Positions 51,118-59,813 of a stretch of DNA of 64,000 bases are shown here, one piece after another (positions within the stretch are counted from its first letter, which is position 1; each line of letters opens with the position of its first letter). Where the stretch lies: positions 1,856,001-1,920,000 of the forward strand of contig OY970178.1 in the NCBI GenBank assembly GCA_963707915.1, read 5' to 3'. The notes beneath the pieces were generated by a model. It was given only the letters and a program-made list of their open reading frames with translations. It was not told the origin of the DNA and made no database searches. The stretch comes from Candidatus Eiseniibacteriota bacterium (GTDB lineage: Bacteria > Eisenbacteria > RBG-16-71-46). Both the position numbers and the translations under genes were made by a program.

Positions 51118-51194
51118 TGGCAGGCCTGGAGGGATTCGAACCCCCGACACCCGGTTTTGGAGACCGGTGCTCTAGCCAGCTGAGCTACAGGCCT
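51118..51194 (-). tRNA. tRNA-Trp(CCA)
   Basis: AGGCCTG...CCGGTCTCCAAAACCGG...GTTCGAATC...CAGGCCTGCCA. Confidence 0.97.
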
Positions 51195-51260
51195 AAGTCG
51201 TATCCGGGCCGACTCGCGGCGGCCCCCATCGCCATCGCACGACCCACAGCCCGACGCGCG

Positions 51261-51410
51261 CTAGCGCGTCTCCTTGTGGGCGGTGTGCTTCCGGCAGGCC
51301 GGGCAGTACTTCTTCTGCTCGACCCGGTCCGGATGCAGGCGCTTGTTCTTCTTGGTGATGTAGTTGCGATGCTTGCAGTCGTTGCAGGCGAGGATGACCT
51401 GGTCTCTCAT
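51261..51410 (-). CDS. rpmG: 50S ribosomal protein L33 (Zn-ribbon type)
   Basis: Manual translation [49 protein letters not shown]. Confidence 0.96.
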
Positions 51411-51446
51411 GTCGTGTCCCGTCTCCGCTGCCGGACGATCGGCCCG

Positions 51447-52647
<1,201 letters not shown>

Positions 52648-53645: not shown

Positions 53646-53674
53646 AAGATAGTCAGCGCGCCCGGGACTGTCAA
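53646..53674 (-). promoter_or_regulatory. Sigma70 promoter of the tRNA cluster
   Basis: TTGACA-N17-TATCTT. Confidence 0.75.
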
Positions 53675-53723
53675 GACGCGGATGCGCGCCGCTCGCCAGG
53701 GCCCCGAAGCCCGGCCACATGCG

Positions 53724-53770
53724 AAAAGGCAGCCAAGTCGAGCGAACCTGAGTCCACTCTGTGGCTGCCT
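53724..53770 (-). terminator. Long intrinsic-terminator-like hairpin ending the putative sRNA
   Basis: AGGCAGCCA-CA-GAGUGGAC-UCAG-GUUCGCUC-GACU-UGGCUGCCU-UUU. Confidence 0.65.
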
Positions 53771-54034
53771 CTTCCCGAGAGAACAGGGGGTGACCGGGAA
53801 GAACCCCGTTGTCCTCCCGGCTTCGTTGACCGGGCGTATTTGGTTTTTTTGCAGAATGAACAGCGAACCACTACTCAACTAGACACCGACCAAGTCGAGG
53901 CTTCTCTCTCACCCCTTTCTCGTTCGGCCCCATCGTCGAGGCCAACCTGCCAACCAGGGTACGAGCCCTGCCCTGCAGCCATTACGCCGCAGGATGTTCC
54001 GGGTGATCGACTACGCTCGCTCTCCGTATCCGTG
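53724..54034 (-). ncRNA. Putative sigma54-dependent structured small RNA (about 310 nt), family unknown
   Basis: Bounded by a -24/-12 promoter and a terminator; six stem-loops, most with G.U pairs on the minus strand; no convincing ORF. Confidence 0.55.
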
Positions 54035-54044
54035 CATCGTGCAT

Positions 54045-54060
54045 TGCAGGGCGCGTGCCA
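54045..54060 (-). promoter_or_regulatory. Sigma54 (-24/-12) promoter
   Basis: TGGCAC-GCGCC-CTGCA versus consensus TGGCAC-N5-TTGCW, downstream of a sigma54 activator gene. Confidence 0.72.
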
Positions 54061-54178
54061 TCACCCGGGCCACCACGCGACACGACGAAGATCCGCCGTG
54101 AAAACCATATGATGCAATGGATTGCGCTCGTCGTCCCGGTCCGGCATCGGGGCCTCGGCGGACCGGCAGTTCAAGGAA

Positions 54179-54270
54179 GTGTTACGTCCAGAGGTAACAC
54201 GTTCCGCGACGCATTGTCCGCCAACTCCCATGGGCGCAACCACTTCGCGACTGTTACCCGCGAGGTGACA
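54179..54270. promoter_or_regulatory. Two related palindromes, probable enhancer (UAS) sites
   Basis: GTGTTAC-N8-GTAACAC (54179-54200) and TGTTAC-N7-GTGACA (54252-54270), about 155 and 225 bp upstream of the predicted +1. Confidence 0.55.
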
Positions 54271-54301
54271 CTGTTCCCCGATGGCGCGGCCCGAAACAGG
54301 A

Positions 54302-54332
54302 ATCGGGGCGGGGGATGAATCCCCGCCCCGAT
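54302..54332 (-). terminator. GC-rich hairpin after the activator gene
   Basis: ATCGGGGCGGGG...CCCCGCCCCGAT followed by TCCTGTTT on the minus strand. Confidence 0.55.
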
Positions 54333-54349
54333 CTCCGCCCGCGACCCGG

Positions 54350-56774
54350 TCAGGGCAGCGTGATGCTCAGGCGCTTGAGTCTCGCGTAGAGCGTCTTGCG
54401 GCTGACGCCCAGCAATTCGGCCACGCGACTCTTGTTCCGGCCCGCCCGCTGGTAGGCGGCCATGATGGCGGCCCGCTCCTGCTCCGCGGTGTCGTGGGCC
54501 GGGCGGACTGGCGAGGACTGCAGCAGGAAGGGCAACAGCGCGCCCGCGTCCAGGCGCTCGCTGCCGACGTGGAGCGCGCCCACCCGCTTCATCACGTTCT
54601 CCAGCTCGCGGACGTTGCCCGGCCAGGGGTGCGAGAGCAGCACCGCCTCGGCGTCGGCGCTCAGTCGCGGGCCCTGGAAACCGCCGTAGAAGGCCAGGAA
54701 GTGCCGGGCCAGCGGGACGATGTCGTCCGAGCCGCTCGCGCAGCGGCGGCACGCGGATCTCGATCTCGTTCAGGCGGAACAACAGGTCGCGCCGGAACAA
54801 CCGCTCCCCCTCGCTGCCCCGCAGTTCCCGGTTGGTGGAGGCGATGATGCGCACCTCCGCCCGACGCACCCGGGTCTCGCCCAGCCGCATGTACTCGCCG
54901 CTCTCGAGGAAGCGCAGCAGGGTGACCTGCACGTCCTGCGGCAGGTCGCCGACCTCGTCCAGGCACAGCGTGCCGCCGTCGGCCGCCTCGACCAGCCCGG
55001 CCGCGTCGGCGTGCGCGCCCGTGAAGGCGCCCTTGCGGTGGCCGAAGAGCTGCGAGAGGGCCAGTTCGGCGCGCAACGCACCGCAGTTGACCGCCAGGAA
55101 CGGCCGGTCCGCCCGCGCGGAGAGCACGTGGATGGTCCGCGCGATGAGCTCCTTGCCGGTGCCGGTCTCTCCCGTGATCAGCACCGACAGGTCGGTGCCC
55201 GCCGCGCGCCGCGCCATGGCCTCGACCCGCTGCATGGCGTGGGAATAGGCGACCAGCGTGGGCGCCCGGTGCTTGCGACCCGGCGGGACCACGCGGGCGG
55301 CGGTCGCCGCGGCCCCGGCGGCGCCCAGCAGGCGCTGCAGCTCGAGATCGGTGCGTTCGAGCCACTCCTGCGCCGAGAGCTCGGCGAACAGCGCGCCGGC
55401 ACGGTAGAGGTGGTGCCGACCCTCGCGCGGTTCGCTCACCACCCGGCCCAGCTCGAACAGCGTGCGGGCCAGCTCGTAGCGCTCGCGCAGCCCGGTCAGC
55501 ATGCGCACCGTGTCGGTCCAGCCGCGCAGGGCGTCCTCGTGCCGGCCCCGGGCCCAGGCGATCGCCGCTGCCGCGCGGTGCCCCAGCGCCAGCTCGAGCC
55601 GGTCCTCGATGCGTTCCGCCAGCCGCAGGGCCCGATCGCAGGCGAGCTGCGCCTCGTCCAGCCGGCCCAGGCGGGTCAGCGCATCGGCCCGGCGCCGTTC
55701 CAGCTCGACCACCAGGTCGCCCTCGGGGGCCAGGACGGCGGCCAGCAGGCTGGCCTGGTCGTAGCGCGCCAGCGCCTCGGCGTGCCGGTCGCGGTCGGCG
55801 TCCAGCTCGCCGAGGAACTCGATCGCCAGGACCTCCTCGCGGGGCGCGCCGTGCTCCCGGGCGCGCTTCAGGGCGTCGGCGAACAGGGCCTCGGCGTCGG
55901 CGAAGCGGCGCTGCAGGCGGGCGATGTTGCCGCGCGCGATCCGCACCGTCGCCAGGCGCAGCGGGTTGGCGAGCTGCTCGTAGACCTGCTCGGCCTGGAC
56001 GTAGCACTCCTCGGCCTGCTCCCATTCCCCGCTCTTCTGGTGGACGATGCCCAGGTTGAGGAGGGCATCGGCCGTCGAGGGGAACCGGCCCAGGCGCCGG
56101 AACACGTCGAGCGCGGTGCGCAGGCAGGCCACCGCCGCGTCCCACTCGCACAGGTTCTTGAGGATCAGGCCCAGGTCGCTGCGGGCGCGGGCGGAGCGCC
56201 AGTCGTCGCCGAGGCGCCGGTACAGCCCGAGCGCCTGCTCGTAGAAGTCCCGGGCCTCGTGGAGGTCCCCCTCGCGGTACGCGATCCGGCCCAGGTGGTG
56301 GAGCGCGCGCGCCGCGAGGTCGTGATCGCCCGAGGCGTCCGCCAGGGCGAGGGCCGCGGAGGAGTCCACGCGGGCGTCGTCGAGACGGCCCAGCCGGAAG
56401 AGCGCCTCGGCGCACTGCAGGTGAATCCCGGCCCGGCCCGGGACGGCGTCGACGCCCCCCTCGGTCGCCAGCAGCTCGCGACAGTGCGCCAGCGCGCCCA
56501 GCGTGTCGCCCTGGGCCAGCCTGCACGCCACCGCCCGGCTCTCGAGCGCCACCCGGCGGGCCGGCGAGAGCGTCCGCGCTGCAGGCAGCGCGAGCAGGCG
56601 CTCGATCGTCTCCAGCGCGGGCACGGAACTGTCCGCCTGCAGGTACAGGTCGGCCAGCATCTCGAGGTCGGCCACCGCGTCCTGCGGGGTGCCCCCGACG
56701 GGCAACCCCGATCCGCAGGTCAGCGCAAGCTTCCCTTCCAGCTCGGCAATCCGATTCCGGTCATCGATCGGCAC
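54350..56774 (-). CDS. TPR-repeat sigma54-dependent enhancer-binding protein (TPR-AAA+-Fis HTH); +1 frameshift at about 54729, probably an error
   Basis: About 480 aa of TPR-like repeats, GETGTGKE, GAFTGA, LDEVGDL, RRDLLFRL, then in the shifted frame WPGNVRELEN and NKSRVAELLGVSRKTLY. Confidence 0.9.
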
Positions 56775-56813
56775 GCCGGTACTCCGGTCAATTCGGCCCT
56801 AGCCAGCTGGGTG

Positions 56814-57170
56814 TCAGAAACGCAGGAAGATGGCCCTGAGGCCCAGCAGGAACAGTTGTACAGGGTTCGTCGCGACGCTGATGGGAGCCATCTCCTCACC
56901 CACGAGGACAGCCCCTCTCTGCGGCACCACCTGGCTCGTGCTGTTGCGAACCACGGTCAGCTTGCCGGCCTTGCCGTCTCCGGGCCCCATCGGCACATCC
57001 GGGTCACCGAGTGACGGTAGGGGATCGCCCCCGTCCGGCGAAATGACGAAGCTGCCGGAGCCGCTGTCCGCGAAGGACGTCGAGGGCGCGGCGAAGGAGA
57101 GGAAGCAGGTGGTGAGGAGACACAGCGTCAGGACGAACGCCCACGAGCGATTCATCGCGAATCGGAACAT
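56814..57170 (-). CDS. Small exported protein, candidate signalling propeptide (118 aa)
   Basis: RBS GGAAAGG; signal peptide ending SFA; Ser/Gly/Asp/Pro-rich core with GDPLP and GDPDVP; hydrophobic C-terminus. Confidence 0.7.
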
Positions 57171-57323
57171 GAGAACCTTTCCTGTGTCATGAAACGATGA
57201 ACCAAAGCGCCCGGCCTGCTATGACTTCTCCCGCCAGAGGGGTCGCCGTCACGGAGTGAGGTCGGGATACGGGGTGACCCCTCTCTCCGCAGACGTCGTT
57301 TGCGGGCAGCCCGGTACGGAAGG

Positions 57324-57353
57324 ATTGTAGTCCCGTTGCTCCCGGCGCGGCAA
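57324..57353 (-). promoter_or_regulatory. Sigma70 promoter of the small protein-activator operon
   Basis: TTGCCG-N18-TACAAT. Confidence 0.55.
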
Positions 57354-57480: not shown

Positions 57481-58902
57481 CTAGCGCCGCTTGAGCCTGG
57501 GCGGCTGTCCCTTCACGTCTTCGAGCACCACGCCGAATTCGTCCAGGAGCCGCTGCCGCAGGGCGTCCGCCCGGGCCCAGTCGCGGTCCTTGCGGGCCTG
57601 CTCGCGCTCCCCGGCCAGCGCCAGGACCTCGGTTGGCCAGGACTCCCCGGCGGGCTTTCTCCAGAAGAGGCCGAGCACGCCGCCCAGGCCGAGCAGGACC
57701 CGGCCCGCCGCGGGGCCCTCGGGCGAGCCCTCGTCCAGCGCCCGGTTCACCTCGCGCGACAGGTCGAACAGGTGCCCGATGGCCTTGGCGCTGTTGAAGT
57801 CGTCCTCCATCGCCTCGTGGAACGAGCCGCTCGCACTCCGCCACCGCCCGGCCCAGGTCCCCGGTCGGGGCCGTCCCGGCGGGCAGGTCCCAGGCCCGCG
57901 CCCGGGCGAGCACGCCGATCAGGCGCTGGTGGGCCACCGCGGCCTCGGCCAGGCGCTCCTCGTTGAACTCGAGCGGGCTGCGGTAGTGGGTCGAGAGCAG
58001 GTAGTAGCGCACCACCTCGGGGTCCGTGCGGCCGGCGATCTCGTCCACGTAGAACAGGCTGCCGGTCCCGGTGCTCTTCGAGATCTTGTCGCCGCCGGTC
58101 GTCACCATGCCGTTCTCGGTCCAGAAGTTCGCGAACGGCTTGCCGGTGGCGGCCTCGCTCTGGGCGATCTCGTTCTCGTGGTGCGGGAAGATCAGGTCCT
58201 GCCCGCCGCCGTGGATGTCGAGGGTCTCGCCCAGGTACTTCATGCTCATGGCCGAGCACTCGATGTGCCAGCCGGGCCGGCCGGGCCCCCAGGGGCTCTC
58301 CCAGGCCGGCTCGCCCGGCTTGGCGCCCTTCCACAGCGCGAAGTCGAGCGGGTCGCGCTTCTCCTCGCCCACGTTGGCCTTGTCGCCGGCCTTCTCGCGC
58401 TCGCTCGCGCGCACCTCGTCCAGGCTGCGGCCCGAGAGCTTCCCGTAGTCGGCCTTCGAGCGCACGTCGAAGTAGACGTCGCCGCCCGCCGCGTAGGCGT
58501 GGCCCTTCTCGATCAGGCGGCGCGATCAGTTCGAACATCTCGGCGATGTGCTGGGTGGCGCGCGGGTAGTGCGTGGCCGGCAGGATGTTGTGCAGCGCCG
58601 CGCCCTCGAGGTAGGCGGCGATGTTGCGCTCGCTGACCGAGGTGTAGTCCACGCCCTCGCTGCGTCGCCCGGTCGATGATCTTGTCGTCCACGTCGGTGA
58701 AGTTGTAGACGTAGGTCACGTCGTAACCGAGGTGCAGCAGGTAGCGGCGCATCAGGTCGCCCGAGAGCGAGGCGCGGATGTGCCCGACGTGGGGCTTGTC
58801 CTGCACCGTCATGCCGCACACGTACATGCCCACGCGGCCGGGGTGGACGGGGACGAACTCGCGCTTCTCGCGCGTCAGCGTGTCGTAGATGCGCAGCGTC
58901 AC
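57481..58902 (-). CDS. cysS: Cysteine--tRNA ligase (three apparent +1 frameshifts)
   Basis: [51 protein letters not shown] spread across frames. Confidence 0.93.
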
Positions 58903-59813
58903 GGGTTCTCCAGGGGGATGGCGGTGGCAGCCGCCGGGCCGGGCCCGGCGGACAGCGGTCGGATGGCGATCTCGCGGTTCGTCCCGGTGCGGATGTCCCC
59001 GGCGACCAGCGCCTCGTGGGCGCGCAGCCGCAGCTCGCGCGCCACCTGGAAGGCGTCGGCCCCGGGCCGGGACCGTACCACCATGCGCAATTGGACCTCG
59101 GCGCCGGCGAGCGCCTCGACGCCCCACAACTCGGCGGGCTCGATCAGCCGCTCGCGCCAGCACCGGCTCGGCATTCAGTCCGTCCACGACCCCGCGGCAC
59201 AGCTCGAGCGCCCGCCCGAGGTCCTCGTTGGCCCCGACCGGCACGTCCACGGTGAGGCGGTTCCAGTCGCGGCTGCGGTTGGTGACCGTCTTGAACTCGC
59301 CGTTCGGCACGTAGTGGACGAAGCCGTTGAAGCCGCGCAGCCGCGTGCAGCGCAGGCGTCACCTCCTCGACCAGCGCGGGCTGGCCCGCGACCTCGACCA
59401 GCTCGCCCACGGCGAACTGGTTCTCGACCAGGATGAAGTAGCCGGCGATCAGGTCGCGCACCAGCGTCTGCGCGCCGAAGCCCAGCGCGACGCCGAGGAT
59501 GCCGGCCCCCGCCAGCAGGGGCTTCACGTCCCAGCCGAAGATCGCCAGCGCGTGGATGAACGCCCCCGCCCAGATGACCGCGGTCGCCAGGCTGCGCAGG
59601 GTCTGGGCGACGCGTCTGCGCGCGCTGCGCGCTGCCCGGCCGGTCCTGGCCCGCGCGGACCATCCAGTGCCGCAGGCGGCCCACCAGCAGCCGCGCGACC
59701 TGCTGCAGCAGGAACGCACCGCCCAGGGTCAGCGCCAGGCGGATCCCCATCTCGGCGAGCTTCTCGGACTCCGGGATGAGGTGCAGGACCAGCAGGTACG
59801 CGGGCAGGTTCAT
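58899..59813 (-). CDS. MscS-family mechanosensitive channel (frameshifted)
   Basis: LLAGAGILGVALGFGAQTLVRDLIAG, ENQFAVGE, VPNG, VTNRSR. Confidence 0.88.

Follow-up and report, generated by a model that had tools for sequence, protein, structure and literature searches.

We analysed a 64,000-nt stretch of a Candidatus Eisenbacteria genome (contig OY970178.1; the window hereafter is this whole stretch), and found between cysS and a tRNA-Thr-Tyr-Gly-Thr-tuf cluster a module that joins a small, predicted exported protein, a sigma54 activator with a tetratricopeptide repeat (TPR) array, and a sigma54-type promoter followed by a structured RNA. By sequence comparison, these parts form one conserved cassette, and the module is a real, largely undescribed control circuit in this uncultured soil and sediment lineage. 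The cassette, its promoter, the genome-unique palindromes, the RNA structure and the seed-loop complementarity with its compensatory changes were established by sequence and comparison, and together they are probably best read as a self-contained sigma54 circuit with a TPR sensor and an RNA feedback arm. In such a circuit, a sigma70 promoter would transcribe an operon for the small, largely disordered exported protein and a cytoplasmic activator consisting of TPR, AAA+ and helix-turn-helix (HTH) parts, and the activator would bind two palindromes and open the sigma54 promoter just 3′ of its own gene. That promoter would yield a structured non-coding RNA (~310 nt here, 420 to 490 nt in relatives), the first ~10 nt of which would pair with the apical loop of a long hairpin starting the operon leader. 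The RNA would tune the levels of activator and exported protein after transcription start, and the feedback would most likely be negative, by analogy with Qrr acting on luxO mRNA. The TPR array would serve as the sensor, whose best ligand candidate is the small protein from the same operon, whole or in part.

All elements of the cassette lie on the minus strand, in the order cysS, sigma70 promoter, open reading frame (ORF) of the exported ~118-aa protein, TPR-AAA+-HTH activator, two palindromes, TGGCAC-N5-CTGC promoter, structured RNA and tRNA cluster, with the activator start 40 nt 3′ of the 118-aa ORF (Table 1). The original prediction, made from the letters of the window, had listed these elements in one orientation between cysS and the tRNA cluster; all of them were present, and they proved to be conserved beyond chance. 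Two sets of loci were compared: one of 41 (40 fetched loci and the window), and one of 76 Candidatus Eisenbacteria loci, 61 of which have at least 450 nt of downstream DNA. The cassette order recurs in two Candidatus Eisenbacteria families, namely the window's own (f1) and a second one (f3, whose tallies for activator orthologues and for the RNA covariance model include the unpublished genome G038). With the TPR part as the query, activator orthologues with at least 53% identity and open frames of ~800 to 930 aa were recovered from 33 of 36 f1 genomes, and orthologues at 39 to 42% identity from all 10 f3 genomes. In the first set, cysS lies upstream in 39 of the 41 loci, and in 39 of the 40 loci with upstream DNA the activator has a matching small ORF before it; one of these 39, L059 from another family, has a different motif. 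The promoter TGGCAC-N5-xTGC is kept in 40 of 41 loci, at 210 to 420 nt after the activator stop in 39 and further on in L052, and the sequence of the remaining locus ends too early; in the second set it was found in 61 of the 61 loci with sufficient downstream DNA. Homologues of the TPR-sigma54 activator thus keep the adjacent signal-peptide ORF, its GDPD motif and the downstream promoter, a joint conservation that had been named beforehand as a test of the original prediction.

Table 1. Positions of the module's elements in the window.
Feature	Positions	Strand	Basis or remark
Sigma70-type operon promoter TTGCCG-18-TACAAT	57324..57353	(-)	Promoter scan; TTGACC-N17-TAGCCT in relatives
Upper part of the long 5′-terminal leader hairpin	57248..57294	(-)	Fold; apical loop 57274..57265 is CCCCGUAUCC, the putative target of the RNA 5′ end
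ORF of the 118-aa protein, predicted exported	56814..57170	(-)	N terminus resembling a signal peptide; middle disordered, with GDPDVP; amphipathic C-terminal helix with LRF at its end
TPR-AAA+-HTH sigma54 activator (bacterial enhancer-binding protein, bEBP)	54350..56774	(-)	Domain matches; one-base frameshift near 54742-54726 in the assembly
GC-rich terminator-like hairpin	54302..54333	(-)	Sequence; 17 nt 3′ of the activator stop
Distal putative enhancer palindrome TGTCACC-N5-GGTAACA (pattern TGTCAC-N7-GTAACA)	54252..54270	(-)	One of two genome-wide matches
Proximal putative enhancer palindrome TGTTACC-N6-CGTAACA (pattern TGTTAC-N8-GTAACA)	54180..54199	(-)	The other of the two genome-wide matches
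Sigma54 -24/-12 promoter TGGCACGCGCCCTGCA	54045..54060	(-)	One of 10 strict genome matches; conserved in relatives
Non-coding RNA	53720..54034	(-)	5′ end placed by promoter geometry; long hairpin at the end (53723)
RNA 5′ seed GGAUACGG	54031..54024	(-)	Part of the non-coding RNA
Paired conserved blocks of the RNA	53968..53957 and 53915..53906	(-)	Part of the non-coding RNA
A-rich run and invariant motif of the RNA	53851..53821	(-)	Part of the non-coding RNA
RNA hairpin H2	53820..53775, loop 53803..53791	(-)	Part of the non-coding RNA
RNA terminal hairpin H3	53774..53723	(-)	Part of the non-coding RNA
Sigma70 promoter of the tRNA-Thr-Tyr-Gly-Thr-tuf cluster, TTGACA-17-TATCTT	53646..53674	(-)	Promoter scan, 10/12 matches; module boundary, outside the module

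The link from the activator to the RNA is strongly supported at the level of sequence, because the palindromes are genome-unique: the pattern TGTYAC-N7-8-GTAACA has two matches in the genome, both of them at this locus. With the strict pattern, 24 of 40 loci had a palindrome at one or both of two fixed distances from the promoter, -210 for the distal and -139 for the proximal site, and the strict -24/-12 pattern itself occurs 10 times on the two strands of the 3.62-Mb genome. The activator matched Sigma54_activat (PF00158, E 9e-60), TPR_12 (E 5e-36), an AAA lid and, in its C-terminal piece, HTH_8 (E 1e-10); its Walker A sequence GETGTGKE is at residue 535, and the GAFTGA motif, which had been called intact, was indeed found at residue 582. 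The genome holds a single rpoN (one Sigma54_DBD match, E 6e-63, in an 819-aa open frame) and 17 strong Sigma54_activat matches. With the promoter retained across both sets and the palindromes confined to this locus, the proposal that the activator drives the adjacent RNA through a -24/-12 promoter and palindromes held up in sequence, and we infer that the palindromes are its binding sites.

Across genomes, the conserved bases of the RNA fall in all three reading frames, and the RNA was therefore judged to be non-coding; small ORFs inside it are not conserved in frame. It also represents a new family as far as sequence can tell: in an Rfam scan of the window region and eight relatives (E<=1), only tRNAs were significant, and no match to Pxr, Qrr or CrcZ was obtained. 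The 3′ 150 nt were found in 38 of 41 loci. Three elements make up this 3′ domain. The first is an unpaired, A-rich stretch that leads into AUACGCCCGGUCAACGAAG, identical in 30 of 30 sequences; next comes H2, a hairpin of 14 pairs whose loop carries a second invariant CCCGGUC, and last a terminal hairpin (H3) of 12 pairs that is 100% paired in the 30 sequences and shows double changes in 4 pairs. Over the H2 and H3 helices, 97.3% of cells were paired, compared with 46 to 58% when the partners were slid, and double changes occurred in 15 pairs versus 2 to 6 in the slid controls, a level reached in 0 of 500 shuffles. The covariance model built for this RNA matched 36 of 39 f1 genomes and 4 of 4 f3 genomes, usually in single copy, and none of 107 genomes drawn from 16 other families of the class. 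The element had been described as a structured, terminator-ended small RNA (sRNA), of which the structured part stood; at ~310 nt it is not a typical small sRNA, and the U run expected of a terminator belongs to a stem, CUUUUC being the 3′ arm of H3 with GCA, GAU or AAU after it and no free U tail.

Several further features of the RNA were noted. The invariant 19-mer occurs exactly once, as the RNA gene itself, in 21 of 26 genomes searched, and no second site for its complement recurred at <=3 mismatches in these 26 genomes. A blastn-short search for targets of the motif in the own genome gave only chance-level matches of <=14 nt, and RNAduplex placed the invariant motif at scattered positions on the operon mRNA. 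A small hairpin, CCCGG/CCGGG around UCAACGAAG, was considered and rejected, since its 3′ half varies into mismatches and f3 is without it. RNAalifold paired the RNA 5′ seed (GAU-A-CGGG, 54031-54024) with the invariant CCCGGUC at 53832-53826 by 7 pairs and one bulge; such intramolecular pairing would mask the seed, and it offers no covariation to judge by, as the motif never varies. Relatives' RNAs include a hairpin displaying GCACCUCCAUC, an anti-Shine-Dalgarno-like sequence. The window RNA is without ~120 nt of its genus-mates, this hairpin included, the junction being at ~54023, directly after GGAUACGG; the gap may reflect strain variation or an assembly fault. One relative, G019, carries two copies of the 3′ domain (C3:1227151-1227276 and C6:891226-891348), the second beside a second activator copy that is apparently split into two pieces.

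It is highly improbable that the RNA is only a cis-acting leader of the gene that follows it, which would be a cytochrome c gene in some relatives and the tRNA cluster here. Such a role would suit the ~17 of 41 loci in which ~1 kb separates the promoter from tRNA-Thr (L030-L034, L036, L038, L039, L041, L042, L044, L049-L051, L055, L057 and L058), as several of them have a lipoprotein-like cytochrome c ORF (CxxCH) after the RNA. However, the RNA and its terminal hairpin are kept where no such gene follows, as in the window, whose genus is without this ORF, and the 5′ seed finds its match in the operon upstream rather than in the gene that follows. The tRNA cluster, moreover, has a strong sigma70 promoter of its own, near consensus and ~35 nt before tRNA-Thr(tgt), and should therefore be transcribed independently of the sigma54 RNA.

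The evidence for the proposed feedback arm comes from the 5′ end of the RNA. By promoter geometry, the transcript would start ~3 nt before GGAUACGGGG, with the seed beginning 27 to 31 nt after the T of TGGCAC; GGAUACGGGG, the first ~10 nt, has its reverse complement CCCCGUAUCC upstream of the small ORF, in the apical loop listed in Table 1. When the whole cysS-activator interval was scanned with the seed of each locus, the best complement was located 480 to 540 nt before the activator start in most loci, and an anchored scan revealed at least 7 contiguous pairs at one place in the leader in 53 of the 56 loci with a recognisable seed (of 61). A TTG...TAnnnT promoter (TTGACC-N17-TAGCCT) lies 69 to 79 nt upstream of the target site in 44 of 48 loci, which puts the site in the 5′ leader of the operon. 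Among 50 distinct seed/site combinations, compensatory pairs were observed at three positions, where A-U was replaced by G-C (6), U-A by C-G (2), and G-C by U-A (7); examples are GGGUACGGGGUG with CACCCCGUACCC in L070, GGGGCACGGGG with CCCCGUGCCC in L100, and GGGUACGGGU with ACCCGUACCC in four f3 loci. Because the genomes are related, these changes were counted as about five or six independent events rather than fifteen. Overall, 94.2% of the seed-site cells were paired, versus 90.6 ± 0.6% after seeds and sites had been re-dealt among the loci (0 of 2,000 reaching the observed value).

The structure around the site is consistent with such a contact. In the minimum free energy fold of the window leader, all 10 bases of the site are unpaired and 15 pairs enclose them. 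RNAalifold on the ungapped leader alignment returned no structure, the stems being out of register, and single-sequence folds were used instead; in these, the 10-nt site was in a stem-closed loop in 35 of 49 loci, compared with 17% with shuffled flanks. From its predicted start, the leader folded as one long hairpin in 48 of 48 loci, with 18 to 34 pairs enclosing the site and energies of -19 to -57 kcal/mol; the hairpin begins at nt 1 to 4 in most loci, its stem sequences differ widely between loci, and in 16 of 48 it is followed by a U-rich tail resembling that of an intrinsic terminator. It may be an attenuator, a stabiliser, or both. Judged by complementarity and covariation, the leader of its own operon is a well-supported target of the RNA, and pairing there would make the circuit an autoregulatory loop, as with Qrr on luxO. 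This contact, the most telling hint at function, had no place in the original prediction.

As a separate observation, the activator start region UUGACCGGAG-N7-GUG (56791-56772) is highly conserved in f1 and shows complementarity to CCGGUCAA of the invariant RNA motif over 8 nt in the window and up to 12 nt (UUCGUUGACCGG) in L082. A second RNA contact, over the Shine-Dalgarno sequence of the activator, is possible; the complementarity is absent in f3.

A second version of the cassette was found in the same genome, outside the window (G000:C1 ~1989500-1997500, minus strand). It encodes a 1029-aa TPR-sigma54 activator, with sigma54-type promoters at 298 and 808 nt past its stop codon, and an upstream ORF of 118 aa whose start resembles a signal peptide. 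This ORF also has SGEPDV and a C-terminal helix rich in Trp, and it matched the profile of the first family at E 6e-10. In the paralogous set, which consists of this copy and 20 fetched loci (L136-L155) from several families of the class, the small ORF is upstream in 20 of 21 loci and a promoter follows the stop by ~200 to 320 nt in 19 of 21. GGGGGACCUC forms the 5′ end of the paralogous RNA, and GAGGUCCCCC is found in the leader of that module, ~100 nt ahead of the start codon; the match or a near variant of it was present in 12 of 19 loci, with per-locus shuffle support that is weak (0.01 to 0.3) because the sequence is of low complexity. Two paralogous cassettes with seeds of their own suggest that these RNAs serve, as a core function, to pair with the leaders of their own modules, and they likewise suggest that the small protein and the TPR activator belong together. 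The comparison thus supports a functional pairing of the two proteins.

A number of observations weigh against the circuit as we propose it. The invariant 19-mer of the RNA has no explanation in the model, and no Hfq match was found in the genome. In the window, the seed duplex has only 8 bp, as the ~120-nt deletion begins directly behind GGAUACGG. The 10-mer target is not rare, with 4 occurrences in the genome, so that the case for pairing depends on conservation and covariation among related genomes that are not independent; 8 of the 61 loci are without a clear seed or site. A hairpin of -19 to -57 kcal/mol may remain unaltered when its 10-nt loop is bound, and the negative sign proposed above comes from analogy. 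The ends of the transcript are likewise predicted positions. Finally, the reading frame of the activator changes once near 54742-54726, where there is one extra base relative to L061, the closest relative, which has an intact 807-aa ORF.

This frameshift bears on whether the module is decaying in the present genome, which we consider improbable. Decay would account for the frameshift and for an RNA that is shorter than in all genus-mates and lacks ~120 nt with the CACCUCC loop, and contigs of three public DNA runs are without one base at 54726-54730 compared with the window; these contigs are dominated by AAA+ domains of other organisms. Against it, the promoter, the palindromes, the seed core, the 3′ domain and the small ORF are all intact, and cysS (57481-59310) is in four frame pieces versus an intact 546-aa ORF while tuf (51193-52647) is split into two. 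Since these essential genes in the window are also frameshifted, the assembly (3.62 Mb in one contig, 72% G+C) appears to carry frequent indel errors, and single frameshifts here are thus not to be read as pseudogenes. The frameshift in the activator is probably an assembly indel rather than a sign of gene decay.

We then considered what the TPR array may sense, starting from the small protein. The 118-aa protein is predicted to be exported: in 35 of 35 aligned members, the N terminus MxRFxxNRWW is followed by a hydrophobic run and AxA-like sites, the signal peptide being judged by eye. G55-D56-P57-D58 is invariant in 35 of 35 and P60 nearly so, and the C terminus is amphipathic, of the form W.WRL..VL..LR.FYLRF. 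The structure model has helices at 2-26 and 102-115 with disorder between them, at a predicted local distance difference test score (pLDDT) of 64.9. No Pfam or NCBIfam family matched the protein. A profile search of 1.84 billion representatives returned 342 proteins at E<=1e-3, 249 of them at E<=1e-10; among the 150 matches listed, nearly all were full-length proteins of ~101 to 126 aa, and a few of 134 to 159 aa matched at their C-terminal end. The source records name these relatives only as "hypothetical protein".

The first 490 residues of the activator were modelled as ~12 helix pairs (pLDDT 92.6) with no membrane segment. To our knowledge, the sensor domains that have been studied well in sigma54 activators do not include TPR domains. 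Among the matches listed by Foldseek, the best solved structures were LGN/Pins, OGT and consensus TPR superhelices, and kinesin light chain was also similar. A comparison with RRNPP receptors, which the original prediction had proposed as a check, did not bear it out, as none of the 41 matches listed is an RRNPP receptor and the sequence profile gave NprR at E 1e-7 versus Pins/LGN at E 1e-22. As modelled, the TPR array is a generic peptide- or protein-binding superhelix with no specific tie to RRNPP.

These results make it rather unlikely that the module performs quorum sensing of the RRNPP type, as originally suggested, with the small protein exported and cut and a peptide re-imported to bind the TPR groove and switch the activator. 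That scheme does agree with a small signal-peptide ORF adjoining a TPR activator, with an exported part modelled as disordered, as a pro-peptide would be, and with a TPR model of the peptide-binding type, whose top matches are LGN/Pins TPR structures solved with bound partner proteins; the same pairing, in addition, recurs in the paralogous module across the class. RRNPP peptides, however, diversify with their receptors (diverging pherotypes), whereas GDPD remains invariant while the TPR domains diverge to 40% identity. The precursor of ~118 aa is twice the usual length and is encoded upstream of the receptor, re-import would have to cross two membranes, and a peptide permease or processing protease was not seen in the cassette, for which no dedicated search was made. 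The fold matches, as noted, include no receptor of this kind.

Sensing of secretion or envelope state is a somewhat better candidate, albeit still an unlikely one. Here the TPR array would bind the unexported precursor in the cytoplasm, through the N-terminal MxRFxxNRWW or the C-terminal helix, and the output would report on export. The logic would resemble that of PspA-PspF, of FlgM export and of type III secretion TPR chaperones that double as co-activators. It would fit the unusual conservation of the signal-peptide n-region (consensus MxRFxxNR, with M1 and L14 nearly invariant), the conserved C-terminal amphipathic helix that ends in an aromatic residue, and an activator model without a membrane segment, which requires the contact to be cytoplasmic. 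The invariant GDPD, on the other hand, is in the part that would be outside the cell.

With about equal reservation, the small protein may be regarded as cargo: it would belong to the envelope or the cell surface, and the circuit would set its dose while the TPR array senses another protein or a metabolite. The RNA would act on the leader before the small ORF, placing the small protein itself under feedback, and nothing ties it physically to the TPR domain, as this reading would have it. Yet its pairing with the TPR activator survives in two paralogous modules across the class despite divergence of the rest of the small protein, which is hard to explain by co-regulation alone.

Taken further, the data allow the tentative proposal of a new circuit class, in which the exported disordered GDPD-type protein would be the cognate signal or the secretion-state reporter of the TPR-sigma54 activator, the only direct output would be an RNA that loops back on its own operon, and each genome would hold two insulated paralogous copies with different seeds. 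We regard this extended version as possible but doubtful. If it is true that the exported protein is a cognate signal or reporter, the module would be a diderm counterpart of peptide-receptor signalling with an RNA output, and two paralogous modules with different seeds would amount to natural insulated RNA feedback loops. That the activator is constantly paired with an exported disordered protein, in both paralogous versions and across the class, points to a signal route to sigma54 that begins outside the cell or in the export pathway. The RNA appears to be a new family with solid covariation, an invariant 19-nt motif and a target in its own operon leader. The circuit is also compact: with two promoters, two proteins, one RNA and two RNA-RNA contact elements, it could be rebuilt in E. 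coli without culturing the organism.

A literature search, with subscription journals outside its coverage, returned no paper describing a TPR-sigma54 activator, alone or with an sRNA, and none on this Eisenbacteria module or on RRNPP joined with sigma54. The module nevertheless resembles several known systems in part. With the RRNPP systems (Rap, NprR, PlcR, PrgX and AimR) it shares, as far as sequence indicates, a cytoplasmic TPR sensor that adjoins the gene of a small secreted precursor; it differs in its output, an AAA+ sigma54 activator and an RNA, in its lineage, an uncultured phylum outside Firmicutes, and in its precursor, which is long and has an invariant motif, and no specific kinship in fold or sequence was found. 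In PspA-PspF, envelope state reaches the sigma54 activator through a controlling partner protein; PspF, however, has no sensor domain and PspA is not exported, and the two systems are likened by description only. In Pseudomonas, the gene of the sigma54 activator CbrB directly precedes that of CrcZ, a non-coding RNA that is long (~400 nt) and carries A-rich motifs. CbrB belongs to the response regulators, though, and CrcZ, a sponge for protein, repeats its A-rich motif several times, whereas the RNA here has one A-rich run and a putative pairing 5′ seed.

In Vibrio, qrr1 adjoins luxO, and Qrr RNAs are ~100 nt in length and Hfq-dependent. Phosphorylation switches LuxO, which has a receiver domain, while the present activator has a TPR array; no Hfq gene was found here, the proposed target is a loop atop a long 5′ leader hairpin, and the RNA families are unrelated. 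The two systems nonetheless share a sigma54-driven RNA that pairs, here by prediction, with the mRNA of its own activator: LuxO drives sRNAs that pair with the luxO mRNA in addition to other targets (PMC3262071). Together with LuxO-Qrr, nla19-pxr of Myxococcus xanthus is the described arrangement nearest to the module. There, the regulator Nla19 belongs to the response regulators instead of being a TPR protein, the RNA Pxr has a length of 108 nt, and the available text describes neither an exported small partner nor pairing with the own leader (PMC5568312); Pxr had no Rfam match in the present RNA. Like the module described here, however, nla19-pxr places an intergenic sRNA gene just 3′ of the gene of a sigma54-dependent regulator, with an apparent sigma54 promoter and a multi-stem-loop RNA (PMC5568312).

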